This document shows positions 8,722 through 49,857 of a DNA stretch of 64,000 nucleotides, one piece after another; position 1 is the first letter of the stretch, and each line of letters opens with the position of its first letter. Under the pieces are notes generated by a model. It worked only from the letters and a program-made list of their open reading frames with translations, searched no databases and had not been told where the DNA came from. The stretch is from positions 824,169 to 888,168 of the forward strand of contig JAEINU010000001.1 of the NCBI GenBank assembly GCA_016342685.1, read 5' to 3'. The position numbers and the translations under genes were made by a program. Source of the DNA: Bacteroidales bacterium. Lineage in GTDB: Bacteria; Bacteroidota; Bacteroidia; Bacteroidales; UBA12077.

Positions 8722-8758
8722 TCTTAAAAAAAGAAATATAGGCGAAAAATAAATAATT

Positions 8759-10765: not shown

Positions 10766-10767
10766 TT

Positions 10768-12141: not shown

Positions 12142-12145
12142 GATC

Positions 12146-15238: not shown

Positions 15239-15239
15239 A

Positions 15240-16274: not shown

Positions 16275-16279
16275 AAGCC

Positions 16280-17473
16280 ATGAATAAATCAAAATATATA
16301 ATACTTTTAATATACATTTTAACCTGCTATGCATGTGATAATTTAGACATCAAGTCAGGTCAATCAGAGTCTTTTATAAAAATATTTGGTTCGTATAGTG
16401 ATGATTATGGTGTAGATATAAAGGAATACGATAATGGTTATTTGATATTAGCAACAGTAAGTCCTAATAATGAAAATACAACAGACATTGCTATTATTAA
16501 AACTGATAAATATGGAAATCAAACAAATATTGAAACAATAGAGAAAAGTGGAAATGATCGTGCTTCAAAACTATTAATAACAAATGATGGAGGTTTTGTT
16601 ATTTTGGGAACATGTGAAGATACTGTTAACAATAACAAAGATATCTATGCTGCTAAGTACACCTCTACTTTAGAAAAAGAATGGACTAAGTCTATTGGTA
16701 AGGTCAGTGAAAATGAGGAAGGAATTTCAATTGCTAAACTATCAGATGGGTATTTAATTGCTGGTAATTCGGACGAAGCCAATGTGGCCAATGGAAATCC
16801 AAGTGGTGTGCAAGATATTGTTTTAATAAAAATAAACGAATCTGGAGATACACAATGGATAAATAGTTTTGGAGGAGTTGCCAAAGATATTGCAGTAGAT
16901 GTAATTGTTACCGATAATGGATTTGTTATAATTGGAACAACAGCAAGTTTTAGTGAACACGGACAGGACAAAGAAAACATAATTGTTATTAAAACAAATT
17001 CGGAAGGAAACGAAACGGATAAGTTAACATATGGAGGTTCATTCGACGACAAAGGTATTGCACTTATAGAATCAGATGCAGGTTATATTCTTCTTGGAAC
17101 CAAAGAGATATTATCAGGAGGAAACTCAGATATTTATTTAGTGTATTTAGGAAATGATATATATGATATTATTGATGAAAAAACATATGGCAGTTCAGGG
17201 GCAAACAATATTGGATCAGCTTTATATTATACAGGTAATAACCTTGTAGTTGCAGGAAGTAATGAAGAAGGAGGTGTAACTTCTGCCTATTTCTTAAAAC
17301 TAGATATTGAAGGAAATATTCTTATTGAAAATACTTTTGGTGGTTACGATGCACAAGTAATAAATGCTATTGAAAAGACAAGCGATGGTGGTTATATTAT
17401 GGTAGGTGTTAGTGGTTTCGGAGGAAATAATCAAATATGCTTATTAAAAGTAAGCTCTGAAGGGGAATTGTAA
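16280..17473 (+). CDS. Beta-propeller lipoprotein with ~50-aa degenerate blade repeats
   Basis: Lipoprotein signal (LTCYACDN). Repeated motifs DGGFVILGT / DGYLIAGNS / DNGFVIIGTT / DAGYILLGTK / DGGYIMVGVS. Confidence 0.5.
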   Translation: MNKSKYIILLIYILTCYACDNLDIKSGQSESFIKIFGSYSDDYGVDIKEYDNGYLILATVSPNNENTTDIAIIKTDKYGNQTNIETIEKSGNDRASKLLITNDGGFVILGTCEDTVNNNKDIYAAKYTSTLEKEWTKSIGKVSENEEGISIAKLSDGYLIAGNSDEANVANGNPSGVQDIVLIKINESGDTQWINSFGGVAKDIAVDVIVTDNGFVIIGTTASFSEHGQDKENIIVIKTNSEGNETDKLTYGGSFDDKGIALIESDAGYILLGTKEILSGGNSDIYLVYLGNDIYDIIDEKTYGSSGANNIGSALYYTGNNLVVAGSNEEGGVTSAYFLKLDIEGNILIENTFGGYDAQVINAIEKTSDGGYIMVGVSGFGGNNQICLLKVSSEGEL

Positions 17474-20500: not shown

Positions 20501-23500
20501 TCCTATTTATACAATTTCTCCTTCGGCAAAAGTTTCAGGAAATTATGATATTTGTGATAAAGATTCAGCAACACTTTTATTTCAGTTAACAGGTAATTCA
20601 CCTTGGGATATTGAGCTAGATACTGGAGTAGGAATAACCACTATTTCAAGTATAAATGCCTCGCCTTATATTTATAAAGTACAAGCGAATGATTTAAATA
20701 ATTTGGTTGATCCTGATACTGCAATATATAAAATTACACAGGTTACAGATGTAAATGGGATTATTGTCAGTGTAGGTTCACCAATCGATAGTGCTACGGT
20801 ATTTGCTTATAAATTACCTGTAGTTGATATTACATATCCTGCGGGAGATCAAACATATAATATAAGTGCAAGTGAAGATACTTTAGTTGGAAATCCTCTT
20901 AATGGGATTTTTACTGGAGCAGGAATTGTATCCTCAAATAACACATTTCATCCTTCATCAGCAGGTCTTGGAGAGCATAATATAGAATATACTTATACAG
21001 ACCCAACCTCAGGATGTTCAAATTTAGACTCAGTAGAGTTAACCGTTATAGAATCAGCAGCAGAAATTGTTTTTCAAAATAACGATACATGGTGGTGTGA
21101 TTATGAAACATCGTTTACTTTAACAGGAGCTGTAGTCGGGAAACCGTCAATAGTTGGAACTTTTTCTTTAGATAAAGATGGAGGCGCAATTAGCTCGACA
21201 GCTGATAATGCTGCCATAATTGATATTAGTTTATTAGTTAGCGGGGGGTCTTACATTGTTAGTTATAGTTATTTTGATGGTGTTCCAATTACATTCATAA
21301 AAAGTTTTACTATTGAATCTGTAAATACAGATATTGGTATTCCAGTTATTAATGATATGTGTGAAGATTATGATACAGTATTTGTAAATGCTTATAATCT
21401 TGCTCCATTAGGAGGTAGTGGTACTTTTACCTTTTCAGGCAGTAGTAGTGACTATTTTATAAATGACCCTAACAATAATAAACTTTATTTTTATCCTGAT
21501 TCGATTGCTCCCGGGGATTATAATTTGAAATATTACTACACAACTCCAAATGGATGTAATAGCGTTGAAACATCACGAGATTTTAAAGTAAATGCCTTAC
21601 CAATTGTTGATATTGTAATGGATAATCTTTATAATATTGAGGGTGGAGTTGAAATTATTTCTGGAACTCCAAATACACCAGCAGGTATATTCTCACCTAG
21701 TTTCATGATTGACAATAGTAACGGAACAGCGAACTTTAACCCATCTATAGTGGGTTTAGGTATTGATACTGCATATTATACTTATACAGATGTTAATGGT
21801 TGTGTTAATCAAGATACCGCAATATTTGAAGTTGATAAAGCAAAAGGACAATTCTATGGATTAGATAAGTTTGATTCTAAAAATCAATATTGTTATTTTA
21901 ATAGTTTATCCGATACAATTAGTGTAATTCCTTTAAATGGGAGTGGTTTTCCAGGTTCATTTTATATTGATAATATATTATTTACTAATAATGTTGGTAA
22001 TGATAGTATAGCATTTTCACCTTCAGATATAATTTCAGGAAACCATGATTTGAGATTTACATATACCAGAGATGGAGTTGAATTTAATCTCGATACAGTC
22101 TTTAATATTGATTCCATTGGGAGTTTAAGTGTTGTTGGACTTGATAGTGAATATTGTCAAGATGATGATAGAAGCATTAATCTTACGGGGATTTCAGATG
22201 GCGCTGGATCAGGTTTAAGTATTTTTGGAGGGGATGGTATTACTGATGTAAATGGAATATTTAAACCAGCTGATGCTAATATAGGAACAAATACGATCTC
22301 ATACACATTTACAAGAGATGATTCTGGGTGCCAAAAGAGTGTTAGTGTAAATAGCCTAATAAATAAAGTGCCAGATATCGGATTTATTCTTGAAAAGACT
22401 TGTATTTCTAGCATTCAAGATTCTGTTTTATTTACTTCAGATACTTTATCATCTGATAATGTGATTAACTGGAATTGGTCTGTAACAGCACTTGGAAATA
22501 GCAGATTAAGTAATGAAATCAATCCTAAATTTTCGTTAACAAAGCAAGAGAAAAACTTTATTTCATTAACTGTTGAAACAGATAAAGCGTGTTCTTCTTC
22601 TCTAGATAGTAGTATTTTTATAGGTTCTGTTGTAGATATAGATTTCTCTTGGGATAAGGAATGCTTTGGCGAAACAGTTACATTCAAGGTTTTAGAAAAA
22701 ACGGATGAGCTAGGGGTCGACAGTGTTCGATGGAATTTTGGAGGAGATGGTTTTTCCGATTTAACAGATATTTATAATCCGCAATATACATATGATGTTC
22801 ATGGAGGGTATGATGTTACATACGAAGAGTTTACAAAATCTTGTGGACTTATTTCAGAAACCCTAAAGATAAATATTCGTCCTTCCATTAGTTTAAGTTC
22901 TGGGGCATATTTCGAAGATTTTGAAGAAGAATCAGATGTGACTGGATGGGCTGTTGATATTTTAGAAAGTACTTCGAACTCATCATGGGAATGGGGTGTT
23001 CCGAATGGAACGCTTATCAATACAGCAGCAGATGGAACTAGTGCGTTTGTTACAAATTTGGATGGGAATTATGCAAATGACGAGAAATCTATTATTTCAA
23101 GTCCTTGTTTTGATTTGTCGGGACTTGAACGACCAATGATATCGTTTGATTTTATTTCTGATCTTCAAGAAGATAGAGATGGAGTTGTAATTGAATATGC
23201 TGTTGATAAAGAAAACTGGAAGATATTAGGATTTGCAGATCAAGGTGTTGATTGGTTTAATACAAACACAAATTACGATGCTATTTTAGGTTCTTCTAGA
23301 GCTTGGACTGGCGATGGCGAAGGTGAATCATTTTCAAGTGAGGATGTAGAATGGAGAAAAGCGAAATATTGGCTCGAAGATGTAGTTGGAGAAGCAGGAG
23401 TAAGGTTTAGGTTTACTCTGGGAACTGATGATGCCGGAGTGAATGAAGGTTTTGGATTTGATAATTTGCGAATTGGTGATAGAAACAGAATGGTATTATT

Positions 23501-24428
23501 AGAGCATTTTGCAAATCCTTCAGAAGAAGATTTTATTAATACTCAGAATATAATCAACAATATTGTAAGTGATAACCCATTAGATGTTATATCAGTTCAG
23601 TTTTTCACAAGTTTCCCTGAAATAAATGATTTAAGTAGTTTTTATACTGCTGGACCAAGTGCAAGATCTTTATATTATGGTGTATCACAAGTTCCTTATT
23701 CTATTGTTGATGGGGGCGATAGAAAATTTAATTATTCTAGTACAAATACTTTAGGAACAGTTGATATTCAGAAAAGAATGCTTGAAGAATCTAAATTTGA
23801 AATAAATGTTAAGCAAGATAATCAAAATGATAAATTAGTTGTTTCTGGATCAATCAAAGCAAAGGAAAATATTTCAGGAATTGGAATAAGTGCAAGAATT
23901 GCAATAGTTGAAAAGACAATTCGTTATGAAGAAAATACTATTCATAATGTACTTAGAGCTATGCTGCCAGATCCGGCAGGGAAGCTAATAGAGAGAGAGT
24001 GGCTAGCTAATGATTCGGTAATGGTATATCAATCTTGGGATTTGCCAGAATTAGTAAATAAAGATAGCTTAATGGCAATCCTTTTCATTCAGGATGAATT
24101 AACAAATGAAATATATCAGGCTGGATTTACTGATAAATTTTCAATTGTTACGTCAAATGAATCAGATTTTATTCAGAATGAAAATACATATAGTATATAC
24201 CCAAATCCAATGTCAGATTATTTTACAATAGTGTTTGGGGTTGAACAAAAAGAAGATCTAGTAATAGACTTATATAATAATATTGGTGTACTTGTTAAAA
24301 CAATGAAGTTAGAGCAAGGTCTTAGTATGATTGAGGTAAATACAGATGACTTGCCTATAGGTATTTATTATGTACAGGTTAAATATCCTAATTATATAAG
24401 TTCACAAAAAATTGTAAAGAGTAATTAA
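17517..24428 (+). CDS. Giant (2303 aa) cell-surface adhesin-like protein: signal peptide, ~8 Ig-like ~105-aa modules, beta-rich region, MAM-like domain, T9SS type-A C-terminal sorting domain
   Basis: Signal peptide. Repeated module TP.I..V.SDAT.AG.LKVG..ITFT.D ... LTGVT..D.AGN.S. MAM-like block GWAVDILESTSNSSWEWGVP...SPCFDL. C-terminus YSIYPNPMSDYFTIVF...GIYYVQVKY matches the Por_Secre_tail pattern. Confidence 0.8.
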   Translation: MKKRYQIFYILLFVLISNLGFAQLTIVNALAVDGDSNGFYGTVEIEFSTGVNDAEMQTSALPRDDWEFSEDPEFTTFIRPNSFSTEVFDIAVANVANDKYIRLTFPSEFSSSTGTIYYRYINGNLGSDDVTDFTTGTDVLADFAIKSATDGAPPVISGVVSNATDAGVLKVGESIVFTVDFEDTTNDPNLTILPAQYNSEDLNWITSNGGDTYTGTYTVTEGNADQTTELQLTGVTATDEYGNVSASFNGTDVDKTIDANTPTISSVTSDATAADTLIVGETITFTVDTETGLTILPLQYNGQNLNWTAISGGDTYQGIYTVMEGDQDRITPLQLTGVTAEDAAGNISNTEDGSDVVKSIDANTPSIVTVKSDATAAGILKVGDKITFTIDVATPDGNLSVNPSNYNGETLSWSTSDGGDSYIGIYTVVDNGVDQTSDLQLTGVTLTDAAGNVSSSVDGVDIEKTIDSNIPTISSVTSDATAADTLIVGETITFTVDVVDTETGLTILPLQYNGQNLNWTDISSGDTYQGIYTVMEGDQDRITPLQLTGVTAEDAAGNISNTEDGSDVVKLIDANTPSIVTVKSDATEAGILKVGDKITFTIDVATPDGNLSVNPSNYNGETLSWSTSDGGDSYIGIYTVVDNGVDQTSDLQLTGVTLTDAAGNVSSSFDGVDIVKTIDSNIPTISSVTSDATAADTLIVGETITFTVDVEDTETGLTILPLQYNGQNLNWTEVSSGDTYRGIYTVMEGDQDKITPLQLTGVTAEDAAGNISNTEDGSDVVKSIDANTPSIVTVTSDATLLGVLKVGDKITFTIDVVTSDGNLTVNPTSYNGRALNWFTDDGGSTYTGIYNVTEGDPDQSSALPFTGVTLTDVAGNVSAIYSASDVVKTIDANSPFINNFVVPQINMTIGNTYTATISVSSDPDTYTLTSGELSGFTLHSLTKDADDSYSVDFTITDLGYDILSDNSYLISNLVMSDASGNISNTYSSSISQINDPIYTISPSAKVSGNYDICDKDSATLLFQLTGNSPWDIELDTGVGITTISSINASPYIYKVQANDLNNLVDPDTAIYKITQVTDVNGIIVSVGSPIDSATVFAYKLPVVDITYPAGDQTYNISASEDTLVGNPLNGIFTGAGIVSSNNTFHPSSAGLGEHNIEYTYTDPTSGCSNLDSVELTVIESAAEIVFQNNDTWWCDYETSFTLTGAVVGKPSIVGTFSLDKDGGAISSTADNAAIIDISLLVSGGSYIVSYSYFDGVPITFIKSFTIESVNTDIGIPVINDMCEDYDTVFVNAYNLAPLGGSGTFTFSGSSSDYFINDPNNNKLYFYPDSIAPGDYNLKYYYTTPNGCNSVETSRDFKVNALPIVDIVMDNLYNIEGGVEIISGTPNTPAGIFSPSFMIDNSNGTANFNPSIVGLGIDTAYYTYTDVNGCVNQDTAIFEVDKAKGQFYGLDKFDSKNQYCYFNSLSDTISVIPLNGSGFPGSFYIDNILFTNNVGNDSIAFSPSDIISGNHDLRFTYTRDGVEFNLDTVFNIDSIGSLSVVGLDSEYCQDDDRSINLTGISDGAGSGLSIFGGDGITDVNGIFKPADANIGTNTISYTFTRDDSGCQKSVSVNSLINKVPDIGFILEKTCISSIQDSVLFTSDTLSSDNVINWNWSVTALGNSRLSNEINPKFSLTKQEKNFISLTVETDKACSSSLDSSIFIGSVVDIDFSWDKECFGETVTFKVLEKTDELGVDSVRWNFGGDGFSDLTDIYNPQYTYDVHGGYDVTYEEFTKSCGLISETLKINIRPSISLSSGAYFEDFEEESDVTGWAVDILESTSNSSWEWGVPNGTLINTAADGTSAFVTNLDGNYANDEKSIISSPCFDLSGLERPMISFDFISDLQEDRDGVVIEYAVDKENWKILGFADQGVDWFNTNTNYDAILGSSRAWTGDGEGESFSSEDVEWRKAKYWLEDVVGEAGVRFRFTLGTDDAGVNEGFGFDNLRIGDRNRMVLLEHFANPSEEDFINTQNIINNIVSDNPLDVISVQFFTSFPEINDLSSFYTAGPSARSLYYGVSQVPYSIVDGGDRKFNYSSTNTLGTVDIQKRMLEESKFEINVKQDNQNDKLVVSGSIKAKENISGIGISARIAIVEKTIRYEENTIHNVLRAMLPDPAGKLIEREWLANDSVMVYQSWDLPELVNKDSLMAILFIQDELTNEIYQAGFTDKFSIVTSNESDFIQNENTYSIYPNPMSDYFTIVFGVEQKEDLVIDLYNNIGVLVKTMKLEQGLSMIEVNTDDLPIGIYYVQVKYPNYISSQKIVKSN
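18300..20198 (+). repeat. Three tandem near-identical coding repeats (627, 636, 636 bp; each encodes two Ig-like modules) inside the adhesin gene
   Basis: Identical antisense ORFs at 18494-18730 and 19130-19366 (offset 636). Direct reading shows >90% nucleotide identity between units starting at 18300, 18927 and 19563. Unit 3 diverges after ~19900. Confidence 0.85.
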
Positions 24429-35884: not shown

Positions 35885-37888
35885 ATGAGAATTTTTGATG
35901 GATTATTCAAGAGGATTGTTATAATTTTTTTGATTATTATTTTGCTGTGGTTTTTGTTTTCTAATGTTATAATATTCTCATTATTTACAGAAGTAGAAAA
36001 TTATAATCTTATTAAAGAGCATGTTGATTGGGCTTTTGTAATTTTTTCATTTATTCTAATCTATTTTTTAATAAATAGAGAATTTATTAAAAGGAATTAT
36101 AGAAAAGCAGTCATAGCAGCAGAGCAAAATCTGTACAAAACAATATTCGAAACTGCTCATGATGCAATTTATCTATTAAATGATCAATATGAATTTGTTG
36201 ACTGTAATAAGGAAACACTTGACATGTTTCAATGTACAAAAGAGCAAATTATAGGTAAAAAACCTTTTGATGTTTCTCCTTATTTTCAGTTTGGTGAGGT
36301 GAAATCAGAAATGCTATCAACTGAAAAAATGAGTCAAGCAAAAAATGGAAAACCTCAATTTTTTGAATGGTTACATACTAATTTAAAAAAGGATAAATTA
36401 TTTTTTACAGAGGTTTCACTTAATAGATTGGTAATTTCAGGTGAAATTTTTTTATTAGCAGTTATCAGAGATATTTCTAAAAGAAAAAAGGCTGAAAGTA
36501 CATTAACAGAAAGCGAAAAAAAATATCGTCGATTAACTGAAAATTCTCCCAATATAACTTACATTTTTTCAGTAAAAAGAGGTGCTTTATATTGGTCTTC
36601 TAAAGTAAAGGATATTCTTGGTTTTGATTCTGAGAATTTATTAAACAATACACTAAAATGGGGGAATTCAATACATCTAGAAGATAGACCTAAAATAAAA
36701 CTTTTTTTTACAAATATTCAAGTTGGAAAAACATACGAAATAGAATATAGAATATATGATATTCATAAAAAGATACATTGGTTTTATGACAGGATATTTA
36801 ATGTGAGGGAAGAAGATGGAGATATTATTTTAGAAGGTATAATATCAGATATTACGAAACAAAAGGAAACAGAACATATTCTAAAAATAAGTGAAGAAAA
36901 ATATAAGGCACAATATGATTATTTCCCTATACCAATATATACTTTTAAAAAGCAAGGCAAAGACTTATATATCACAGATGTAAATAACGCAGCAAAAAAT
37001 TATCCTTTTGTTAAAGCCGAAGAAATAATAGGAAGGAATGTGACTGACTTTGTTGAAAATAAAGAAGAAATGGTGCTTCTTGATGTTTTAAATGAAACGT
37101 TCAAAATAAAACAAGACCAGAAATTAGAAATGGCCTATAGGTTTAAAACAACAGGTGTAAAAAGAAATATAACTGCCGTTATTGGATTTGTTCCACCCGA
37201 TTCTGTGTTGTTATCTACAATTGATGTAACAGATAAAAGAAATGCACAGCAAAAGGTTTATCATGCAATGATTAATGCGGAGGAACGAGAAAGAAGTCGA
37301 ATTGCTAAAGAATTACATGATGGTGTTTCTCCAATATTGTCGGCTACTAAGCTTTATATACAAACCTTATTGAATTTGAAAGATGAAAAAACAAGGGGTG
37401 AAATATCTAATAAGATTAATAATACAATAAATGAGGCGATTCAAAGTGTATCCGATATCTCAAATAAGCTGAGTCCTCACATTCTTCAAAATTTTGGTTT
37501 ATCTACGGCAATACAATCTTTTTTTGATAAGATAACTGAGATTGCAAATATTCATCATAGTTTTTTTTATAATATTAATAGTAAGCTTGATGAAGATATT
37601 GAAGTTAATATTTATCGAATATTAGTTGAACTTATTAATAATACTGTAAAGTATGCCAATGCAAAAAACATTATCATTAATATTCAAGAAAAGGGAGATG
37701 TAATTAAGATATTTTTTGAACATAACGGTAAGGGTTTTAATATTGAAGAAGTTAGAAGTAAATCTAGGGGCATGGGCTTATATAATTTAGATAATAGAAT
37801 AAATTTATTAAATGGTGATTTCGATATTGAATCTGATATTAAAACTGGACTGAAAGTAAAAATTACTTTTCCTTTAAATATAGAATAA
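35885..37888 (+). CDS. Membrane sensor histidine kinase with three PAS domains and HisKA_3/HATPase_c core (NarL-partner type)
   Basis: Two N-terminal TMs; PAS repeats; H-box ERERSRIAKELHDGVSPIL (HisKA_3); C-terminal ATPase G-boxes. Confidence 0.8.
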   Translation: MRIFDGLFKRIVIIFLIIILLWFLFSNVIIFSLFTEVENYNLIKEHVDWAFVIFSFILIYFLINREFIKRNYRKAVIAAEQNLYKTIFETAHDAIYLLNDQYEFVDCNKETLDMFQCTKEQIIGKKPFDVSPYFQFGEVKSEMLSTEKMSQAKNGKPQFFEWLHTNLKKDKLFFTEVSLNRLVISGEIFLLAVIRDISKRKKAESTLTESEKKYRRLTENSPNITYIFSVKRGALYWSSKVKDILGFDSENLLNNTLKWGNSIHLEDRPKIKLFFTNIQVGKTYEIEYRIYDIHKKIHWFYDRIFNVREEDGDIILEGIISDITKQKETEHILKISEEKYKAQYDYFPIPIYTFKKQGKDLYITDVNNAAKNYPFVKAEEIIGRNVTDFVENKEEMVLLDVLNETFKIKQDQKLEMAYRFKTTGVKRNITAVIGFVPPDSVLLSTIDVTDKRNAQQKVYHAMINAEERERSRIAKELHDGVSPILSATKLYIQTLLNLKDEKTRGEISNKINNTINEAIQSVSDISNKLSPHILQNFGLSTAIQSFFDKITEIANIHHSFFYNINSKLDEDIEVNIYRILVELINNTVKYANAKNIIINIQEKGDVIKIFFEHNGKGFNIEEVRSKSRGMGLYNLDNRINLLNGDFDIESDIKTGLKVKITFPLNIE

Positions 37889-37889
37889 A

Positions 37890-38543
37890 ATGAGCAAAAT
37901 AATTAATATAATTATTGTTGATGACCATGCAATTTTTAGAGATGGTTTGAAATCATTATTATCACAGATCCCAAATTTTTATGTTTTGGATGAAGCAAAA
38001 ACGGGATTGGATTTTTTGAATATTTTACAAAATAGAAAGCCAGATATTGTATTGATGGATATCTCGATGCCCGAGTTAGATGGGGATGAAGCCACAGAAA
38101 AGGCTTTACTACAATATCCAGATCTTAAAATAATAGCACTTTCCAGTTATAGTGATCATATTTATTACTACAAAATGATTAGAGCTGGAGTACAGGGGTT
38201 TGTATTAAAGAAATCGGGTAGAGAAGAACTTGAAGAAGCAATAAATACCGTTTTTAAGGGTGAAAACTATTTTCCTCAGGATATCTTAAGAAATTTAATA
38301 TTTAAATTAGGAAATACAGGAATTGAATCCGTTTTAGATGATCATGTTTCTCTTTCAAAAAGAGAAAAAGAAGTGTTACAATTAATTTGTCAGGGATTTA
38401 CAAATATTGAGATTGCTGAAAAACTTCACATTAGTCCTAAAACCGTAGATAATCACAGAACCAAATTGTTGTCAAAAACCAATACTAAGAATTCAGCTCA
38501 TCTTGTTATGTTTGCTATCAAGAATCACTTAATAGAAGTCTAG
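37890..38543 (+). CDS. NarL/FixJ-family response regulator (REC + LuxR-type HTH)
   Basis: REC domain (IIVDDH ... VLMDISMP ... ALSSY); LuxR HTH (REKEVLQLICQGFTNIEIAEKLHISPKTVDNHRTKL). Start is 2 bp after the kinase stop. Confidence 0.85.
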   Translation: MSKIINIIIVDDHAIFRDGLKSLLSQIPNFYVLDEAKTGLDFLNILQNRKPDIVLMDISMPELDGDEATEKALLQYPDLKIIALSSYSDHIYYYKMIRAGVQGFVLKKSGREELEEAINTVFKGENYFPQDILRNLIFKLGNTGIESVLDDHVSLSKREKEVLQLICQGFTNIEIAEKLHISPKTVDNHRTKLLSKTNTKNSAHLVMFAIKNHLIEV

Positions 38544-38585
38544 AAATTAAGTGATTTATAGTTATATCTCTAGTTTTTTAAAGTA

Positions 38586-38630
38586 AAATTAGGGGATTTA
38601 CCCTATCGATTTAGTGTTTTCCCCTCTTAT
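38586..38630 (+). promoter_or_regulatory. Conserved 45-bp element with inverted repeat (AGGGGA..24 bp..TCCCCT, inner GGGGAtttACCC), 46 bp upstream of the cheY-like gene; copy 1
   Basis: 42/45 identical to the copy at 42770-42814. Same spacing to the start codon in both copies. Lies just downstream of the NarL-type regulator gene. Confidence 0.55.
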
Positions 38631-38676
38631 TACTTATTGAATAGTAAATTATTTTTGGCATTAAAATATTAGTGCC

Positions 38677-39090
38677 GTGAAAATAATAATTGTTGATGAC
38701 AATAAAACTTTTAGAGAAAGCCTGAAATATTATGTGGAAGACGAACTTTTGCATGAAGTTATCGCTATGGCGGTAGATGGACTGGAGTTTCTAAAAATTG
38801 AAAATATTCATAAAGCCGACATCGTTTTAATGGATATAGAAATGCCTAATTTAAATGGCATTGAAACTACAAAAAGAGCTTTGAATGATTACCCTGCTTT
38901 AAAAATTGTGGCAATTACAAATTATACCGATAGAGCTTATCTTATTGACTTGTTAAGTGCTGGATTTAAGGGCTGTGTTTTTAAGAATAGTGTTTACGAT
39001 GATCTTAAGAATGCTCTTTCTAATTTGTTTTCTAACAAGTTATATTTTCCAAATAACATATTAACAATAAGGAATATAGTAAACAAATAA
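38677..39090 (+). CDS. cheY: CheY-like single-domain response regulator (GTG start), module A
   Basis: Receiver residues present: DD (7-8), D in LMDIEMP, T in AITNY, K in FKGCVFK; no output domain. Confidence 0.7.
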   Translation: MKIIIVDDNKTFRESLKYYVEDELLHEVIAMAVDGLEFLKIENIHKADIVLMDIEMPNLNGIETTKRALNDYPALKIVAITNYTDRAYLIDLLSAGFKGCVFKNSVYDDLKNALSNLFSNKLYFPNNILTIRNIVNK

Positions 39091-39100
39091 TATATTATAT

Positions 39101-39574
39101 ATGGAGATAGACAGCAAAACACAAATTAACTCCTATTTAACGTTTAAAATTGGAGTTGAAGAGTTCGGAATTCAAGTAAATAAAGTACTAAATATTCTTG
39201 AATTGCAAGAAATTACAAATGTTCCAAAATCTCCTGAGTATATGAAAGGAGTTATTAATTTAAGAGGAACAATTCTTCCAATAATTGATACTCGGATTAA
39301 ATTTGAAATGACTCCAACTGAGTTTACAGATGATACATGTATTGTGGTGATGGATTTAGTAGTAGAAGATGAGATAATGCATGTTGGAGCCTTGGTCGAT
39401 TCTGTTGTTGCAGTTCGTGAAATTGATGAAAGTCAAATTAATCCATCTCCGAATATTGGTAAAAGTTATAAATCAGAATTTATTTCTGGACTCGTTAAAA
39501 TTAATGAAAGCTTTGTCATGATTTTGGATGTAATTAAGCTTTTTACAGGTGAAGATTTAAAGGATTTAAATTAA
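39101..39574 (+). CDS. cheW: Chemotaxis coupling protein CheW, module A
   Basis: Classic CheW core LTFKIGVEEFGIQVNKVLNILE...PKSPEYMKGVINLRGTILPIIDTR. Confidence 0.85.
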   Translation: MEIDSKTQINSYLTFKIGVEEFGIQVNKVLNILELQEITNVPKSPEYMKGVINLRGTILPIIDTRIKFEMTPTEFTDDTCIVVMDLVVEDEIMHVGALVDSVVAVREIDESQINPSPNIGKSYKSEFISGLVKINESFVMILDVIKLFTGEDLKDLN

Positions 39575-39631
39575 AAAAGGAATTATAAAATGACGTTTAA
39601 TAATTAAAAATTAGTAATAACACAATTAATT

Positions 39632-40378
39632 ATGAAAAGAAGAATAGTTTTAATAATTGTATTAATACTAATAAGCTTTAGCGGTTTTTCACAGGATATA
39701 ACATTAGTCAATAAGGATTCTAAATCTTATACCGATATAGGAGCCGATATTGTAAGTAGTTATGTTTGGAGAGGTTTGCAAGTTGATGCATCTCCTAATA
39801 TTCAAGGATGGGGAGAGTTTGGTAATAATTTTTTTAATTTTGGTGTTTGGGCTTCTAGTAATTTTAATGGAAGTTATGTAGAAGCAGATGTTTATGCAGG
39901 ATTCACAATCGGAGGATTTAACGCTTTACTAACGGATTATTTTGTGGGATCGGATGATTTTTTCAACTTTGATAAAAATACAACTACTCATGTAGCAGAA
40001 TTAGCTCTACAATACACAATAAGTGATAATTTCCCTTTGCAATTTACATTTGGAACATTAATTTTTGGAGACGATAAACAAATTGCTTCAGTTGATTTAA
40101 ATGATGATCCTGTTTTTAATAATAAGAATAATTTTTCTTCTTACATCGAACTTATGTACACAATTACACATCGAAATACTGAAATTTCATTTGTTGCTGG
40201 CGGAGTAACTCATGAAAGTTATTATTATTCCAGCGAAAGAGCTTCCATTATAAATTTGGGAGTTGTAGCTTCTAAAGAAATAAAAATTACAGATAATTTT
40301 AGTTTACCTATATCTTTTGGATTGACAGTAAATCCAGAGCTTGAGAGTATATATACTGTTGTAGGTATCACATTATAA
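39632..40378 (+). CDS. Outer-membrane beta-barrel protein, possibly TorF-like putative porin, module A
   Basis: Signal peptide; YVWRGLQVD motif resembling the TorF/Gcw_chp family; alternating beta-strand pattern; C-terminal aromatic-rich strand. Confidence 0.45.
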   Translation: MKRRIVLIIVLILISFSGFSQDITLVNKDSKSYTDIGADIVSSYVWRGLQVDASPNIQGWGEFGNNFFNFGVWASSNFNGSYVEADVYAGFTIGGFNALLTDYFVGSDDFFNFDKNTTTHVAELALQYTISDNFPLQFTFGTLIFGDDKQIASVDLNDDPVFNNKNNFSSYIELMYTITHRNTEISFVAGGVTHESYYYSSERASIINLGVVASKEIKITDNFSLPISFGLTVNPELESIYTVVGITL

Positions 40379-40401
40379 ATCATTAGATTAATTAATAAGT
40401 T

Positions 40402-42474
40402 ATGAGAACAAATTCAATAAAAACAAAACTTTCTCTTGTTTTAGGAGTGATAATATTAATTGCAATAGCAATAATAATTACGGTGTCAAGCATTAATGGA
40501 AACAAAGTTGCCATTGAGAATGCAGAAAACAAGATGGTATCTACTTTAGAGAATTCCACACAAAAACTCGAAAATATTATTAATAAAAATATTTTGGAAA
40601 TGGAAGCTCATTGGAATGATTTAAAAGTTTTGATTCAATATGAAAATTTTGATAGAACACAAGTTCAGGATATTTATAAAAATATGCTGAAAAAAGATGC
40701 TTCTGCCATTGGATATACAATATGTCTTAAGCCTGGTTGTTTTGATGGCAAATCTGATGATTATAAAGGATATCCAGGTTATTATTCTGATGGACGTTTT
40801 AGTGAGTATTTATATAAGGAAGGTAATCAAATCTTAAGAGATGAATTGACCATTTCTTTTGAACAGGATCTTCAAGAGGCAGGTTCTGATTGGTGGAGAA
40901 TACCGGAAAAGACAAAAGAAAACTTTATCTATATGGATATATACAATGTTGGTGGGAAAGACGTATTAATGGTTTCTGTTACATATACAATACTTCGTAA
41001 CAACGAATTTATTGGAGTAATATGTAAAGATTTTATTAGTGAATTTATACAGCAAGAAGCTATAGAAGCAAATAGTAAACTTTTTAAAGGTCAAGGTAAT
41101 ATAGAAATATACGATCAGGATGGAAATATAGCTGCAGATACTAAAAATGCAGAAAATGTAGGGAAGGATCTCAAAACTATATCAAATGAAAATTACTCAG
41201 AAATTATAAGTTCAATAAAACAGGGAGAAGAAAGAACTTATAAAGAAAATGGTAATTACTACTGTGTAGTTCCTATTAAATTTAATGGAAGTACATCGAA
41301 TTGGCAAATGAGAGTAGAGATTCCTGAAAATGTAATAAAAGAAAAAGCAATGTTGCTAATGAGAAATCAGCTTATAATTGGATTATTTTCAATTTGTATA
41401 AGTATTCTTATTATATTTTTAATTGTAAAAAGAATGCTTAATCCATTAAACAGTTTAACCGCCTTTTCTGAAAAAGTAGCACAAGGTATTCTTTATGAAA
41501 ATATTAATATTGACAGGGATGACGAAATAGGTCAGTTAGCTAAAGCATTTTCTATAATGATGAGTAGAATTAGAGAAGTAGTTAATGGAGTAAAAGATAA
41601 TGCCGATAATCTTGTTAGTGCTAGTCAACAATTGAGTTCAAGTTCAGAAGAAATGTCCCAAGGTGCATCCGAACAAGCATCGTCAACAGAAGAAGTTTCT
41701 TCATCAATGGAAGAGATGTCGTCTAATATTCAACAAAATACAGATAATGCACAGGAAACAGAAAAAATATCTGTTGTGGCTGCAAAAGGAATATCGGAGG
41801 TTGAAAAGGCTGCTAAAGAAAGTTTAACATCAATTAAGCAAATTGCAGATAAAATAACCATTGTTAACGACATTGCATTTCAAACGAATATTTTAGCATT
41901 AAATGCTGCTGTCGAAGCTGCTAGGGCAGGAGAGCACGGTAGAGGTTTTGCTGTTGTTGCTGCCGAAGTAAGAAAATTAGCAGAGCGTAGTAAAATTGCT
42001 GCCGACGAAATAGTTTCCTTATCTACTTATAGTGTTAAAGCAACTGCAGACGCAGGAGAACTAATGTCAAAAATAATTCCGGAGGTTGAAAAAACTGCAA
42101 GATTAGTGCAGGAGATTACTGCTGCTAGCTTAGAGCAAAATTCAGGTGCCGATCAAATAAATAGTGCGATACAGCAATTAAATCAGGTAACTCAGCAAAA
42201 TGCTGCGGCAAGCGAAGAAATGTCTACAAGTTCAGAAGAGCTTTCTAGTCAAGCTGAACAACTTAAGGATATGGTGAGTTTCTTCAAGGTAGATAATTCT
42301 GAAAATTATATGGGCGTTAGGTCTAATACTTTACAACAGTTTAATCAAGATTCAAAATTTGTAAAAACTGCAGGATCAAACGGTAGTAAGAACAAAAAGG
42401 TTCTTGATGAAAAAGGGTTTGATCTTAATTTAAATGAATCTAATAAAATAGATAATGAATTTGAATCATTTTAG
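40402..42474 (+). CDS. Methyl-accepting chemotaxis protein with periplasmic double-Cache-like sensor, HAMP and MCP signalling domain (MCP1)
   Basis: TM1/TM2 flank a ~285-aa extracytoplasmic domain; HAMP; highly conserved MCP signalling core ([40 protein letters not shown]); C-terminal NEFESF. Confidence 0.9.
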
Positions 42475-42502
42475 ATAAGGGTAGGTTTTTTTAGTTTGTA
42501 GA

Positions 42503-42534
42503 AAAGGAGGACATTATATTGTTCTCCTTTTTTA
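42503..42534 (+). terminator. Rho-independent terminator after MCP1
   Basis: AGGAGGACA / TGTTCTCCT stem followed by a T6 run. Confidence 0.55.
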
Positions 42535-42769
42535 ATTTCTAAATAATTCTGTCTGAACTTATAACTCTAAAGGTGATTTATGGTATTATCAATATGTCAA
42601 TCAATTCTATTTAAAAAGAGCAGGCTGGTATCGAATAGCAGAACCAATTTATTGTAAAAAACAATTCAAAGAATGAAGCTTATCCGATTATGTTTATTAT
42701 CTAACATTATTTACTACAGACGCATAAATTAGAAAATATTTAATTAGATCTCTCCTCGTTTTTAAAATG

Positions 42770-42814
42770 AAATTAGGGTATTTACCCTATCAATTTAGTG
42801 TTTTCCCCTCTTAT
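42770..42814 (+). promoter_or_regulatory. Conserved 45-bp inverted-repeat element, copy 2, 46 bp upstream of the cheY-like gene of module B
   Basis: Near-identical to 38586-38630; contains perfect GGGTA-TT-TACCC palindrome. Confidence 0.55.
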
Positions 42815-42860
42815 ATTTTTTCGACCATTAAGTTATTTTTGATATTTAAATAAGAAAGCT

Positions 42861-43265
42861 TTGAAAATAATAATTGTTGATGATAGTAATGTTTTTAAGG
42901 AAAGTATAAAATATTATTTGGAAAAAATGCTTTCGCATGAAGTTATTAATATGGCAGGAAATGGAGTTGAGTTTCTAAAAATAGAAGATTCATATGAGGC
43001 AGATGTTATTTTAATGGATATAGAGATGCCCCTTTTAAATGGTTTTGAAACTGCGAAAAGAGCATTGTATGAAAATCCCGCCTTGAAACTAATAGCCATA
43101 ACAAATTATTCAGATAGAGTTTATCTTGTAGATCTAATTAGTGCCGGTTTTAAGGCTTGTGTTTTTAAAAGCAATATTTACCAAGAGCTTGAAAAAGTTT
43201 TTTCCAAATTGCATTCAAAAAAGTTGTGCTTCCCCAAAAACATAATGTTAATGAATAATCAATAA
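42861..43265 (+). CDS. cheY: CheY-like single-domain response regulator (TTG start), module B
   Basis: About 60% identical to module A CheY; conserved receiver residues. Confidence 0.7.
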   Translation: MKIIIVDDSNVFKESIKYYLEKMLSHEVINMAGNGVEFLKIEDSYEADVILMDIEMPLLNGFETAKRALYENPALKLIAITNYSDRVYLVDLISAGFKACVFKSNIYQELEKVFSKLHSKKLCFPKNIMLMNNQ

Positions 43266-43283
43266 CCAAATAATATTCGAATT

Positions 43284-43787
43284 ATGGAAATAGAAACTAA
43301 AATAAAAATTGATTCTTATTTAACTTTTAAGATCGGTGATGAAGAATTTGGAGCACATGTAAATAAAGTGCTTAATATTCTTGAGTTACAAAATATTACG
43401 AAAGTTCCTAAATCTCCGGAGTATATGAAAGGAATTATTAACTTGAGAGGAAAAGTGCTTCCAGTTATTGATACTCGGATCAAATTTAATATGAATCCAA
43501 CTGAGTTTACCGATGATACCTGCATTGTAGTTATGGATCTAGAAATTGAAGATGATGTTATACATATAGGGGCTCTAGTCGATTCTGTTGTTGCTGTTCG
43601 AGAAATTGATGAAAATCAAATTAATCCTCCACCAAGTATTGGGAAAAGTTATAAGTCCGAATTTATTACAGGAATAGTTAAAGTTAATGAAAGGTTTGTG
43701 CAGATTTTGGATTTAGTAAAGCTTTTTACTGGTACAGAATTGAGTGAATTAAAGAAATCACAAAACAAGGTAAATGAAGAAGATTAA
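43284..43787 (+). CDS. cheW: Chemotaxis coupling protein CheW, module B
   Basis: About 75% identical to module A CheW. Confidence 0.85.
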   Translation: MEIETKIKIDSYLTFKIGDEEFGAHVNKVLNILELQNITKVPKSPEYMKGIINLRGKVLPVIDTRIKFNMNPTEFTDDTCIVVMDLEIEDDVIHIGALVDSVVAVREIDENQINPPPSIGKSYKSEFITGIVKVNERFVQILDLVKLFTGTELSELKKSQNKVNEED

Positions 43788-44772
43788 AATTCTATTTACG
43801 GTTTATTTACTGATTTTAACTGCAACTATGTTTGCTAATGATTCAGATTCTGTTGATATCTATCCTAAAACAAAACCAATTATTAAGGTTTTTGGGAATT
43901 ATCATTTTGGATTAAACGATTATTCAACCGTGAATGCTTTTGAACTAACAAGGGCATATTTGGGTTATGATGTAAAAGTATCCGAAAATATTAGTTTTAA
44001 AACCAATATAGACATGGGTCGACCAACATCCGATAGCAAATATGATTATGTTGCATACTTAAAAACTGCTGCTTTAAAATATCATAAAGGCAAAATACAG
44101 ATTAACGCTGGATTGATTGGTTTAAAGCAATTTAAATTGCAAGAAAAAATATGGGGACACAGATATGTTTATAAATCTCTTCAAGATGAGCATAAGTTTG
44201 GACATAGTGCAGATTTAGGTGTTATGCTAGAGTATAAACTAATTGATGGTTTATTTATAGATGCAACGATAAGGAACGGAGAAGGATATAAAAAATTACA
44301 ATCAGACGAAACCTTTAATGGAGCGCTGGGAATTACGTATCACGTTTGGAAAAATATTGTTGTAAGAGGTTCATATGAACATTCAGAGAAATCTATAAAT
44401 CAATCTGTTTATTCTGGGTTAATAGGATTTCAAATGAAAGATGTAATACTTATGGGAGTTGAATATAATTATATGCAAAACTCTTCATATATCAAAAATC
44501 ATAATTTAACTGGTTATTCTGCTTACCTAACATTTATTATGAATGATAAGTTTCAGTTATTTGGGCGATACGATAATTTGAAATCAAACAAAATAAATGA
44601 TGAAATTATTTCATGGAACGAATCAAATGATGGAGAAGCAATAATCGCAGGTGTACAATATAAATTAGAGAAGAATTTAAAGGTATCTACTAATTTACAA
44701 TATTGGGCGCCCGATAAAAATAGTTTAAATAAAGAAGTTTACGCTTTTATAAGTTTAGAGTATAAATTATAA
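43774..44772 (+). CDS. Outer-membrane beta-barrel porin-like protein, module B (family differs from the module A barrel)
   Basis: Signal peptide; ~16 amphipathic beta strands; C-terminal strand ISLEYKL; overlaps CheW-B stop by 14 bp (translational coupling). Confidence 0.45.
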   Translation: MKKIKILFTVYLLILTATMFANDSDSVDIYPKTKPIIKVFGNYHFGLNDYSTVNAFELTRAYLGYDVKVSENISFKTNIDMGRPTSDSKYDYVAYLKTAALKYHKGKIQINAGLIGLKQFKLQEKIWGHRYVYKSLQDEHKFGHSADLGVMLEYKLIDGLFIDATIRNGEGYKKLQSDETFNGALGITYHVWKNIVVRGSYEHSEKSINQSVYSGLIGFQMKDVILMGVEYNYMQNSSYIKNHNLTGYSAYLTFIMNDKFQLFGRYDNLKSNKINDEIISWNESNDGEAIIAGVQYKLEKNLKVSTNLQYWAPDKNSLNKEVYAFISLEYKL

Positions 44773-44784
44773 AAATTATAAAAA

Positions 44785-46782
44785 ATGAAAAATTTAAGAA
44801 TAGGTACAAAACTAGCTATTGGATTTATTATTGTAATTGGTATTAGTGTAGTTATTGGTCTTGTCGGTTATACAGGCATGCATTCTTTAAACGACAGAAT
44901 TGATAAAACAGAAGATGCGCACTCTGTTAGTAAAATGGCTTTAGATTTAAGAAGATATGAAAAGGACTTTATGCTTCGTCATGATGAAAAATCGATACAA
45001 GGCGGAACTAAAACCCTAGAGTCTATTTATGGTCAAATAGAAGAGTCTAAGTTGAAGTTTAAAGATCAAAAGGATTTAGATGATCTTGATGTATTAAAAC
45101 AAAAAGGAGATAATTATAAAGATGCTCTAACTGAGTATGTTAGAATTTACCAAGAAGACTATACTTTTAATATAGAGAAAACCATAAAAGAAGGAGAAAA
45201 AGCCATTGAGTTAGCTAAGGCGCTTCAATTATCTCAAAAACAACAAATGATCGATGAATTAGCAAAAGAAGTAAATAAGAATTTCTTGCTTAAACGTTTT
45301 GAAAAAAATGAACTGTCAAATGATATTCTAGAATCTTTTGCTGTAATACGTATAGATGCTAAAGGTTTTGTAATTAGTCGTGATCAAAAAGACGGCGCAA
45401 AAGTTATTGAGCAATTGGATCTTTTACTTGATAAAATTGACTATACAAAGAAGTTGATGAAAAAGAAAGTTGATATTCAGCAGCTTGAAGAGATGTATAA
45501 TGCGGTTGATGTTTATAAAAACGCTTTTGAAAAATCAGTTGAAGTTGTTGCTTTACAGGAAGATGAAGCCGATGTGATGGTAAGTTCAGCTCATGAATTT
45601 ATTGCTGTTGCTGATAAGTTAAAAGATGGTCAGTCTTTAAAAATGGTAAAAGAAGAACAGCGAGCTAGTTCTATGATTATAAGTTTTATGATTCTTGGAA
45701 TTATTTTAGGTGTTGTTATGGCATATATAATTACTCGAGGGATTATAACCGGACTTAGAAAAGGAGTCGATTTTGCAACTGCTATTGCAAAGGGAGATTT
45801 AACAGCAGAAATTGATATTGATCAGAAAGATGAAATAGGTTTATTAGCAAGATCATTAAAGATCATGGTTTTAAAACTTAAAGAGATTGTTTCTGATATA
45901 ACATCTGGAGCTGAAAATATTGCATCTGCAAGTCAGCAATTAAGTTCTGGATCAGAGGAAATGTCGCAAGGTGCATCAGAACAAGCATCATCTACAGAAG
46001 AAGTTTCATCATCAATGGAAGAAATGACTTCAAATATTCAACAAAATACTGATAATGCACAAGAAACGGAAAAGATATCAGTTATGGCAGCCAAAGGAAT
46101 CTCAGATGTTGAAAAGGCAGCTAAAGAAAGTTTAACATCGATTAAACAAATTGCAGAAAAAATTACAATTGTTAATGATATTGCATTTCAAACAAATATT
46201 TTAGCTTTAAATGCTGCTGTCGAAGCTGCTAGAGCAGGAGAGCATGGTAGAGGTTTTGCAGTTGTTGCAGCTGAGGTTCGCAAATTAGCCGAACGAAGTA
46301 AAGTGGCAGCTGATGAAATAATTTCATTATCGACATATAGTGTTAAGGCAACCGAAGAATCTGGTGAATTAATGTCTAAAATAATACCTGAAATTGATAA
46401 AACAGCAAGATTGGTGCAAGAGATTACGGCTTCTAGTTTAGAACAAAATTCAGGTGCCGATCAAATAAATGGTGCGATACAGCAATTAAATCAGGTAACT
46501 CAACAAAATGCAGCTGCCAGCGAAGAAATGTCTACAAGTTCAGAAGAACTATCTAGTCAAGCAGAACAACTTAAAGATGTTGTAAGTTTTTTCACCTTGA
46601 ATGATAAAACAAGAAATTTTAAGGGTAGTAAAAACACTTTAAAAGAATTTAAATTTGAAAAGCAAGACACACGCACAGATCGTATTAAAAAAGAATCTGC
46701 TGGTCATAGTGAAAATGCTAAAGGCTTTGATTTAAAATTGAATACAAACGACAATATGGATAAAGATTTTGAATCGTTTTAG
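44785..46782 (+). CDS. Methyl-accepting chemotaxis protein with all-helical periplasmic sensor (4HB/HBM-like), HAMP and MCP signalling domain (MCP2)
   Basis: Two TMs flank a ~265-aa helical domain; signalling domain ~90% identical to MCP1; C-terminal KDFESF. Confidence 0.9.
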
Positions 46783-46842: not shown

Positions 46843-47000
46843 AATGTGTACACTCGACATGTTTAGTGTAGGGTGTTGGTAATTAGCTGTTTGTAATATT
46901 GATTTTATCAAAATATGAATAGCTTTTTTACTTTTTGGACAGTTCCTTCCTTATTTAAATAATAAAATAAAAATTAACATTTATTACATTATAAATGAAG

Positions 47001-47065
47001 AAAGGGCGTTTTACTTTTTCAATTACTTATTGTTCGAAACTTTAATATTGTCGTTAGACGATAGT
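47001..47065 (+). promoter_or_regulatory. Conserved ~65-bp non-coding element (copy 1) upstream of MCP3
   Basis: About 80% identical to 49786-49857. Contains TTTACTTTTTCAA, TATTGTTCGAAAC and a TCGTTAGACGA near-palindrome. Confidence 0.45.
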
Positions 47066-49484: not shown

Positions 49485-49785
49485 ATTTTCTAGTTAATGG
49501 TTAAAACCCTGCAATTTCAATGTAGCTACTCTAGTTTCTATAAATTTCAATTAAAATTAAATCTACAATGTTCAAGTTTAAAGTAAATCACAAAACGTAA
49601 TATTCAAAGTCCAATATTTAGGTTTGGGTCATTAATGTGTAATGTTTTTATATTTTGAATATTGGATATTATTTGATATTTGTTAATTGTTATCTGGTGC
49701 TTGCTAAAGGAATTTTATTTGTAATCTATAGTGGTTAAGTTAAATGATGAAATAAGAATGAACAATTATTAAATTATAACTGATT

Positions 49786-49857
49786 AAAGGAAACTTTACT
49801 TTTTCAAATGCGTATTGTTCGATACTTTAATTTTATCGTTAAACGATAAATGTAATT
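49786..49857 (+). promoter_or_regulatory. Conserved ~65-bp non-coding element (copy 2) ending 19 bp upstream of MCP4; contains perfect palindrome ATCGTTaAACGAT
   Basis: Alignment with 47001-47065; palindrome read directly. Confidence 0.45.

Follow-up and report, generated by a model that had tools for sequence, protein, structure and literature searches.

A conserved candidate activator-binding element in the promoters of two tandem receiver-CheW-chemoreceptor operons beside a NarL/FixJ-type two-component system in a Bacteroidales genome

We examined a 64,000-nucleotide stretch of DNA from an uncultured Bacteroidales bacterium (contig JAEINU010000001.1; hereafter the window; G+C content 31%), in which two copies of a 45-bp element stand in front of two tandem chemoreceptor operons and next to the genes of a two-component system. 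The gene order starts with an M90 peptidase gene on the minus strand, which is followed on the plus strand by a sensor kinase of PAS-PAS-HisKA_3-HATPase architecture (35885-37888, assigned by Pfam and NCBIfam) and by a NarL/FixJ-family response regulator (37890-38543), which joins a receiver (REC) domain to a GerE/LuxR-type helix-turn-helix (HTH) domain and carries the recognition helix ISPKTVDNHRTKLLSKT. The kinase is syntenic with the regulator at every orthologous locus and is presumably its cognate kinase. An earlier reading of this DNA made from its letters alone (the sequence-only reading) had placed such a kinase-regulator pair directly 5' of the element, and our domain searches agree. 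Element copy 1 (38586-38630, plus strand) precedes operon 1 (38677-42474, plus strand), which has the order receiver-CheW-X-MCP (MCP, methyl-accepting chemotaxis protein) and encodes a receiver-only protein (38677-39090, GTG start), CheW (39101-39574), a 248-aa protein with no assigned function and a hydrophobic, signal-peptide-like N-terminal stretch (39632-40378), and an MCP with PDC and HAMP domains (40402-42474). Element copy 2 (42770-42814, plus strand) has the same placement 5' of operon 2 (42861-46782, plus strand), which encodes a second receiver-only protein (42861-43265, TTG start), CheW (43284-43787), a 332-aa protein with a sub-threshold match to outer-membrane beta-barrels (43774-44772) and an MCP with HBM and HAMP domains (44785-46782), all on the plus strand as in operon 1. 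Two more MCP genes, starting at 47357 and 49876, lie 3' of operon 2.

The 45-mer, AAATTAGGGGATTTACCCTATCGATTTAGTGTTTTCCCCTCTTAT, is found without mismatch at copy 1 and with two mismatches at copy 2, and a pattern search confirmed these as the sole copies in the window, with none further at up to three mismatches and no match in 100 dinucleotide shuffles. The two copies are identical at 43 of 45 positions, one more than the 42 counted in the sequence-only reading, and differ by G/T at position 10 and G/A at position 23. A spacer of 46 nt separates each copy from a start codon (GTG at 38677 for copy 1, TTG at 42861 for copy 2), and the flanks are diverged, both as that reading had claimed: the upstream regions are 74% identical over 215 nt overall and about 69% identical when the element is left out. 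The underlying blastn alignment pairs 38456-38668 with 42639-42852 (74% over 215 nt, E = 4e-36), showing that the two intergenic regions are homologous throughout. This homology covers the last 88 nt of the regulator gene, encoding its C-terminal HTH region, and their counterpart at 42639-42726 (plus strand) is a degraded relic of the regulator 3' end, interrupted by an in-frame stop, which indicates that the duplicated segment took in at least that end of the gene, the promoter and the operon. Between the copies the element is 96% identical, compared with 72% for the paralogous receiver genes and 77% for the CheW genes at the nucleotide level, and the probability of at least 43 matches in 45 positions is 1e-6 to 8e-4 for background identities of 0.65-0.77. 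Conservation between the copies reaches about 10 nt beyond the 5' end of the 45-mer, by way of an A-rich tract. We propose that the promoter architecture was held by selection while the flanks decayed after the duplication.

Orthologous loci were gathered by exact-protein context look-up, a metagenome scan and a genome scan, all of which started from the regulator, and a reverse search from the receiver-only protein gave three loci (L171, L172 and L173). More than 100 regulator homologs were found at 59-100% identity, mostly in metagenome-assembled genomes (MAGs) of Bacteroidales and Marinilabiliaceae, and an NCBI MAG protein matches the window regulator at 100% identity. Wherever a receiver-led operon comes after the regulator (58-100% identical), as it does in 13 orthologous loci, the element is present, and in these 13 loci it is syntenic with a regulator that has both REC and GerE domains. 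Absence of the element upstream of orthologous modules, which the sequence-only reading had named as counter-evidence, was not observed: all 13 of the 13 regulator-linked receiver-led operons carry it. For the alignments described below we used 15 non-redundant instances of the element, drawn from the window and these 13 further loci. Among roughly 140 loci of regulator relatives at no more than 55% identity, we found neither the module nor the element, and these loci served as a negative background. One 60%-identical regulator (L174), with a T-to-S change in its recognition helix, has no module after it and no element either, and so added no case to the comparison of helix and dyad given below; in place of the element lies an unrelated inverted repeat, GC-rich and with a T run behind it, which on inspection resembles a terminator. 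The converse case is L171, a receiver-led module with no element and with no regulator gene in the 956 bp upstream of it. It is the sole locus where neither an element nor a regulator gene was found upstream of the module; its module has the order receiver-carbonic anhydrase-MCP-CheW, and at about 280-600 on its minus strand we recognized, by eye and without a database check, what looks like a fragment of an IS200/IS605-type transposase. When a position weight matrix of the dyad described below was run over 2.2 Mb of fetched sequence, every match of at least 22 bits was one of these promoter sites. The best match elsewhere, of 21 bits, TAGGTGTTTTACCCTAT at 5071-5087 (minus strand) in the coding sequence of a Vut_1 transporter, was treated as chance, which it probably is, since it lacks a CCTCT block and a -7 box at the proper offsets and the count of such matches is at chance expectation.

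A dyad-anchored, ungapped alignment of the instances resolved four conserved blocks separated by freely diverged spacers. The first, TAGGGkAwTTaCCCTA(T), occupies offsets 0-16 from the dyad start and is found, with variants, in all instances; the second, rGTG, lies at offsets 23-26 in most instances; the third, CCTCT, at offsets 33-37, starting at 33 in 13 of 15; and the fourth, TAnnTTT(G/A), begins at offset 60 exactly in 13 of 15 and at 61 in one, against a background frequency of TAnnTTTG in the window of 7.8e-4 per base. The first block has the highest information content (15-16 aligned instances) and shows the 7-2-7 format, i.e., two inverted 7-bp half-sites with a 2-bp spacer. It corresponds to the 16-bp distal dyad TAGGGGATTTACCCTA at 38590-38605 in copy 1, which we propose as a high-affinity site for a regulator dimer, and to TAGGGTATTTACCCTA (TAGGGTA-TT-TACCCTA) at 42774-42789 in copy 2; neither is assigned to a strand. 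In L003 the dyad is a perfect 8+8 palindrome, TAGGGTAATTACCCTA. The second and third blocks together form a degenerate proximal site, rGTG-N6-CCTCT, which reads AGTGTTTTCCCCTCT at 38613-38627 in copy 1 and has the same sequence at 42797-42811 in copy 2 (both plus strand). The right half of this site, TTnCCCTCT, is a repeat of TTACCCTAT, the right half of the dyad, placed 21 bp (two helical turns) further downstream, and its left half, TAGTG, is a degenerate TAGGG, so that the region has the appearance of a strong dimer site and a weak one that share a face of the helix.

The symmetry kept across genomes is that of the 16-bp dyad, TAGGG-N6-CCCTA. Neither of the two inverted repeats named in the sequence-only reading is this unit: GGGTA-TT-TACCC is perfect in copy 2 only, and AGGGGA...TCCCCT is perfect in copy 1 only and is not conserved. 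We rejected the latter as a long-range feature, as its columns pair in 75.6% of cases against 76.7% in shuffled columns over the 15 instances, and conclude that it is a by-product of three similar half-sites. Within the dyad itself, the bases at positions 6 and 11 fail to complement each other in 11 of 15 instances and pairing is no better than in shuffles, which indicates that the half-sites vary independently, as expected for recognition by a protein and not for base pairing.

The fourth block matches TAnnTTTG, the -7 consensus of the Bacteroidota primary sigma factor, which spans -12 to -5 (PMC9723704; PMC7366714). In both window promoters it reads TATTTTTG and lies on the plus strand 19 nt 3' of the element, at 38650-38657 behind copy 1 and at 42834-42841 behind copy 2. 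With the box at -12 to -5, transcription would start near 38662 and 42846 and leave a 5' untranslated region of about 15 nt. Counted from these predicted starts, the distal dyad lies at -72 to -57 (centre -64.5), GTG...CCTCT at -49 to -35, and the 45-mer as first described at about -76 to -32. The promoters thus resemble Bacteroidota sigma-A promoters in having a perfect TAnnTTTG 19-20 nt before the start codon and, as usual for this phylum, a short leader that lacks a Shine-Dalgarno sequence (PMC9723704, PMC7366714, PMC6847099). They differ in the upstream motif: TTTG at the canonical 19-nt spacing for a -33 element is absent in 14 of 14 instances with a placeable -7 box, the tetramers found there being TTAT, TTTT, TATC, TTTA and similar, and the conserved CCTCT block flanks its place. 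The lack of TTTG is a weak sign that an activator is needed, because a global study of Flavobacterium johnsoniae, as cited in PMC7366714, found no -33 motif and the -33 element is not universal in the phylum. A scan with the sigma-70 -35/-10 model gave 23 sites against 27 expected and was uninformative, as this organism uses the Bacteroidota promoter type, and a sigma-54 reading of TTGGCAT in copy 1 was dropped since its GG is not kept in copy 2.

We next consider which protein might recognize the element. The closest solved relatives of the regulator are VraR, DesR, EvgA, DevR and NarL, and it is a bona fide member of the NarL/FixJ family. Output domains of the NarL type prefer pairs of inverted heptamers 2 bp apart, to which they bind as dimers, and their activating sites lie at about -40 to -49 (PMC4549865). 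The recognition helix ISPKTVDNHRT is nearly invariant in 64 orthologs of the regulator, matching the conservation of the dyad, and where the helix varies the dyad varies too. Most orthologs combine the helix KTVDNHRT with the dyad centre kAwTT; three (L085, L086 and L167) have KTIDNHRT with GTTTTT; and one (L087) has PNTVDNHRS with the dyad TAGTGGAAATCCACTA, which keeps the same offset from a -7-like box. Two of the loci found through the receiver-only protein, both with more divergent regulators, have TKTVSNYRT with GGTAG-N4-CTACC (L172) and VKSIEAYRS with TAGGGTTTA-N19-TAAACCCTA (L173). Taken together, the helix, dyad and co-occurrence data fit the adjacent regulator as the probable binder of the element.

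Two further observations were made in these relatives. The three loci with the KTIDNHRT helix contain a conserved small open reading frame (ORF) between the element and the receiver gene (L085, about 10800-11020; L086, about 13560-13790; L167, 10849-11052), whose product of 67 to about 75 aa, MRxxN...NPIDH..LL.SG(I/L)N.KI, has no counterpart in the window, and which would be the first gene driven by the element there. More distantly, NarL-type regulators 36-40% identical to that of the window, with the recognition helices KTVEGHKT and KTVETHKS, occur in a Dehalococcoidia MAG (L122, about 1600-1680) and a Desulfosporosinus MAG (L123, about 10700-10900) and are followed by several GGG-N-CCC dyads, e.g., CAGGGTAAATCCCCTG; those in L123 lie 5' of two ORFs that, judged from their N-terminal sequences only, resemble a membrane subunit and a Tat-signal oxidoreductase. 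This similarity in sequence hints that recognition of GGG/CCC heptamers may be widespread in this branch of the NarL-type family.

That the element is a conserved transcription-factor or promoter element we regard as very likely. The sequence-only reading had called it a candidate operator for the adjacent regulator, and of this description the conserved cis-regulatory element and the regulator as best candidate binder stand, while the word operator is probably wrong: an element that spans about -76 to -32 and has a canonical -7 box 3' of it, in promoters without the -33 TTTG, shows the geometry of an activator site. From the layout of these loci we infer the start site, the identity of the binder, its occupancy as two dimers and the sign of regulation, and arrive at the following model. 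The 45-mer would be the activator-binding half of a sigma-A promoter. The PAS/HisKA_3 kinase would phosphorylate the neighbouring NarL/FixJ-type regulator, a dimer of which would bind the 7-2-7 dyad TAGGGkAwTTaCCCTA centred at about -64.5, and a second dimer would, probably cooperatively, fill the rGTG-N6-CCTCT site (about -49 to -35), which faces the same side of the helix two turns further downstream and lies against the position of the missing -33 TTTG. Bound in this way, the regulator might help RNA polymerase to use the -7 box and so transcribe the receiver-CheW-outer-membrane-protein-MCP operon, and the two copies in the window arose by duplication of a segment with at least the regulator 3' end, the promoter and the operon. 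For the mechanism as a whole, in which the adjacent regulator would bind and activate the receiver-CheW-porin-MCP operons, our confidence is moderate.

Several points weigh against this model. The adjacency of regulator and element is partly built in, since the regulator was the query that led to most loci. The cases in which helix and dyad co-vary represent perhaps two to four independent events, and common descent may explain them. The kinase-regulator operon itself has no element 5' of it, and hence no site for autoregulation. The predicted transcription start is anchored by the -7 box as its single landmark, the search for copies spanned the 64-kb window and the 2.2 Mb of fetched sequence, and the heptamers are reversed, TAGGGTA-nn-TACCCTA here against TACCCCT-nn-AGGGGTA for E. 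coli NarL. Finally, the proximal site at -49 to -35 overlaps the -33 position and the expected DNA contact of sigma-A region 4, which leads to the first of the alternatives.

The same regulator could bind the same sites as a repressor, in which case the element would be a true operator that occludes the -33 region of an otherwise constitutive promoter. Besides the overlap just mentioned, this account gains from the fact that NarL represses some promoters through 7-2-7 sites (PMC4549865) and from the limited weight of the missing TTTG discussed above. However, the centre of the strongest site, at -64.5, is far 5' of the polymerase footprint, whereas NarL repression sites lie around the start, at -4/+6 (PMC4549865), and the strict 60-bp phasing between dyad and -7 box is required by contact between an activator and polymerase but not by occlusion. 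We consider repression unlikely, if worth keeping in view.

The element might instead be the site of another, unlinked factor, such as a different LuxR-type, Crp-type or other dimeric HTH protein, with the adjacent two-component system as a mere neighbour. The ascertainment of loci through the regulator would produce part of the observed adjacency also under this explanation, Crp-family regulators lie near other CheW-MCP genes in two loci (L003 and L165), and binding by the adjacent regulator is itself a prediction. On the other hand, a kinase-regulator pair is directly 5' of the element in L172 and L173, which were found by way of the receiver-only protein; the dyad variants follow those of the regulator's recognition helix; the 7-2-7 format is typical of this HTH family; and the CheW-MCP genes beside Crp-like regulators have no element. 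An unlinked factor is thus an improbable solution.

The dyad could also act as nucleic-acid structure, either in a 5'-leader RNA or riboswitch or as an intrinsic terminator that serves the regulator gene or antisense transcripts. In favour of this, the fold of copy 1 has z = -3.0, and on the minus strand a pattern scan picks out the dyad as a terminator-like hairpin with a T-rich run behind it. Copy 2, however, differs from copy 1 in its minimum-energy fold and is no better than shuffles (z = -0.7), no Rfam 15 match was found at E values up to 1 over 38300-43100, and covariation and pairing in the short hairpin and in the long-range stem do not exceed those of shuffled columns, with columns 16/21 unpaired in 11 of 15 sequences. 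Since the conserved -7 box is downstream of the element, the element should not be part of the mRNA. A terminator would have no need of fixed phasing to a -7 box, no convergent minus-strand gene is present that requires one, and L174, the locus with the terminator-like sequence, has its unrelated GC-rich inverted repeat and T run instead of the element. A structural role is therefore highly improbable.

A functionless relic of duplication or gene conversion, or a dispersed repeat of the REP (repetitive extragenic palindromic) or MITE (miniature inverted-repeat transposable element) type, is scarcely credible: the operons are indeed tandem paralogs with homology throughout the intergenic region, including the regulator pseudogene remnant, but the element is 96% identical next to coding sequence at 72-77%, the conservation of its architecture in 13 other genomes, down to 58% regulator identity and with freely diverged spacers, effectively refutes a neutral relic, and two copies in 64 kb with none at non-homologous positions in 2.2 Mb exclude a dispersed repeat.

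If the activator model holds, its targets begin with genes that the sequence-only reading had labelled cheY-like, a label that we revise. With the receiver of the adjacent regulator, the two receiver-only proteins share 43% and 36% identity (E = 3e-33 and 3e-29), in alignments that extend into the linker motif (L/N)YFP; with E. coli CheY the values are only 28% and 25%. Their best NCBIfam matches are NarL-class receivers, and at 33.6 bits they fall short of the 189-bit cut-off of the CheY equivalog. They are thus receiver-only paralogs of the regulator's receiver, of the NarL class, and not CheY orthologs; the acidic pocket and the phospho-acceptor Asp are kept. Several public sources label members of this receiver-only family as NarL/FixJ regulators despite their having no HTH.

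No CheA, CheB or CheR domains were found in the 64-kb window, nor in the gene tables of nine relatives (L001, L003, L165, L167-L169 and L171-L173), which mostly covered up to about 10 kb on each side and less for L171 and L172 because of contig ends. Bacteroidales are not known to be flagellated. The absence of these proteins from the loci raises the possibility that the MCP-CheW modules signal through the HisKA_3 system. It is tempting to speculate that the HisKA_3 kinase and NarL-type regulator are wired to a CheA-less MCP-CheW device as a feedback-coupled hybrid, in which the pair would induce truncated copies of the regulator's own receiver along with CheW, a porin-like outer-membrane protein and an MCP, and in which the MCP-CheW complex would signal via the HisKA_3 kinase, or the receiver-only paralog would siphon off its phosphate; both the hybrid and these routes are long shots, and CheA could equally be encoded elsewhere in these genomes.

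The modules have a variable slot between CheW (or the receiver) and the MCP, which is filled by the 248-aa protein (39632-40378) and the 332-aa sub-threshold outer-membrane protein (43774-44772) in the window, by an OprB porin in L173 (8494-9690) and by a beta-carbonic anhydrase in L171 (1433-2167). The contents of the slot suggest that in each module a chemoreceptor is combined with a component of the envelope or of uptake. A second conserved block, unrelated to the 45-mer, lies 5' of the two orphan MCP genes, at 46955-47063 and 49740-49848 (82% identity over 109 nt), where we found no copies of the 45-bp element. It contains TTTACTTTTTCAA, TTGTTCGAnACTTTAAT and the palindrome TCGTTAnACGA, is separated from the annotated start by 290 nt in one copy and about 30 nt in the other, and may be the site of another regulator or a shared promoter. 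Upstream of the whole locus, the window also holds an unusual signalling cluster (5578-17473), consisting of a 1047-aa HEAT-repeat protein, a HAMP-SpoIIE (PP2C) phosphatase, a 457-aa protein of no assigned function, an nSTAND1 NTPase-WD40 fusion (1030 aa), an outer-membrane beta-barrel protein and a 397-aa protein of no assigned function, after which comes a 2303-aa immunoglobulin-repeat protein sorted by the type IX secretion system (17517-24428).

The principle of a regulator, its site and the neighbouring operon is a textbook one and the arrangement conventional for bacteria. The motif seems not to have been described before, and the same goes for its rigid architecture and its distribution, although no literature search was aimed at the motif or the regulator. 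To our knowledge, almost no transcription-factor sites are known in Bacteroidota. The locus thus offers a concrete, predicted binding motif and promoter architecture for a NarL-type two-component family widespread in uncultured sediment Bacteroidales and Marinilabiliales, and an example of an apparently activator-dependent Bacteroidota sigma-A promoter, with a -7 box but no -33 element and with the activator site in strict phase. Once the cheY genes are relabelled as receiver-only paralogs, one has to ask by what route CheW-MCP modules signal in these genomes; the CheA-less reading, if true, would represent a chemoreceptor/two-component hybrid in Bacteroidales.

Among known systems, the element is closest in format to the sites of E. 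coli NarL and NarP, which have the heptamer consensus TACYYMT and the site TACYYMT-NN-AKRRGTA. An example of an E. coli NarL 7-2-7 site is TACCCCTAAAGGGGTA, and napF and yeaR are activated from about -40 to -49 (PMC4549865). Both systems share a 16-bp dyad of two 7-bp half-sites with C/G triplets and a 2-bp spacer, a HisKA_3-partnered regulator with a GerE/LuxR-type HTH, whose binding as a dimer is predicted here, and weaker half-sites nearby, with the site upstream of or abutting the promoter (PMC4549865). In contrast to E. coli, the promoter is of the Bacteroidota -7/-33 sigma-A type and the putative targets are receiver, CheW and MCP genes and not respiratory enzymes. We rejected an E. coli-type NarL box proper, given the reversed heptamer order, in which TAGGGTA-WT-TACCCTA puts an AKRRGTA-like half before a TACYYMT-like one, and a regulator that scores far below the equivalog cut-offs (NarL, 107 bits against 250; NarP, 96 against 343).

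A second parallel is found in two activators of the NarL/FixJ family, BvgA at the Bordetella fha promoter and DosR/DevR of Mycobacterium, where a strong upstream inverted repeat is combined with weaker promoter-proximal sites that are filled cooperatively. The half-site sequences, the spacing, the sigma factor and the promoter type differ from these systems, and cooperativity at the Bacteroidales promoters is suggested by the layout of the sites. What they would have in common is the overall plan, with a proposed strong upstream dyad and a degenerate site two helical turns nearer to the promoter, reaching to the -35-equivalent region, and DevR is itself among the closest solved homologs of the regulator.

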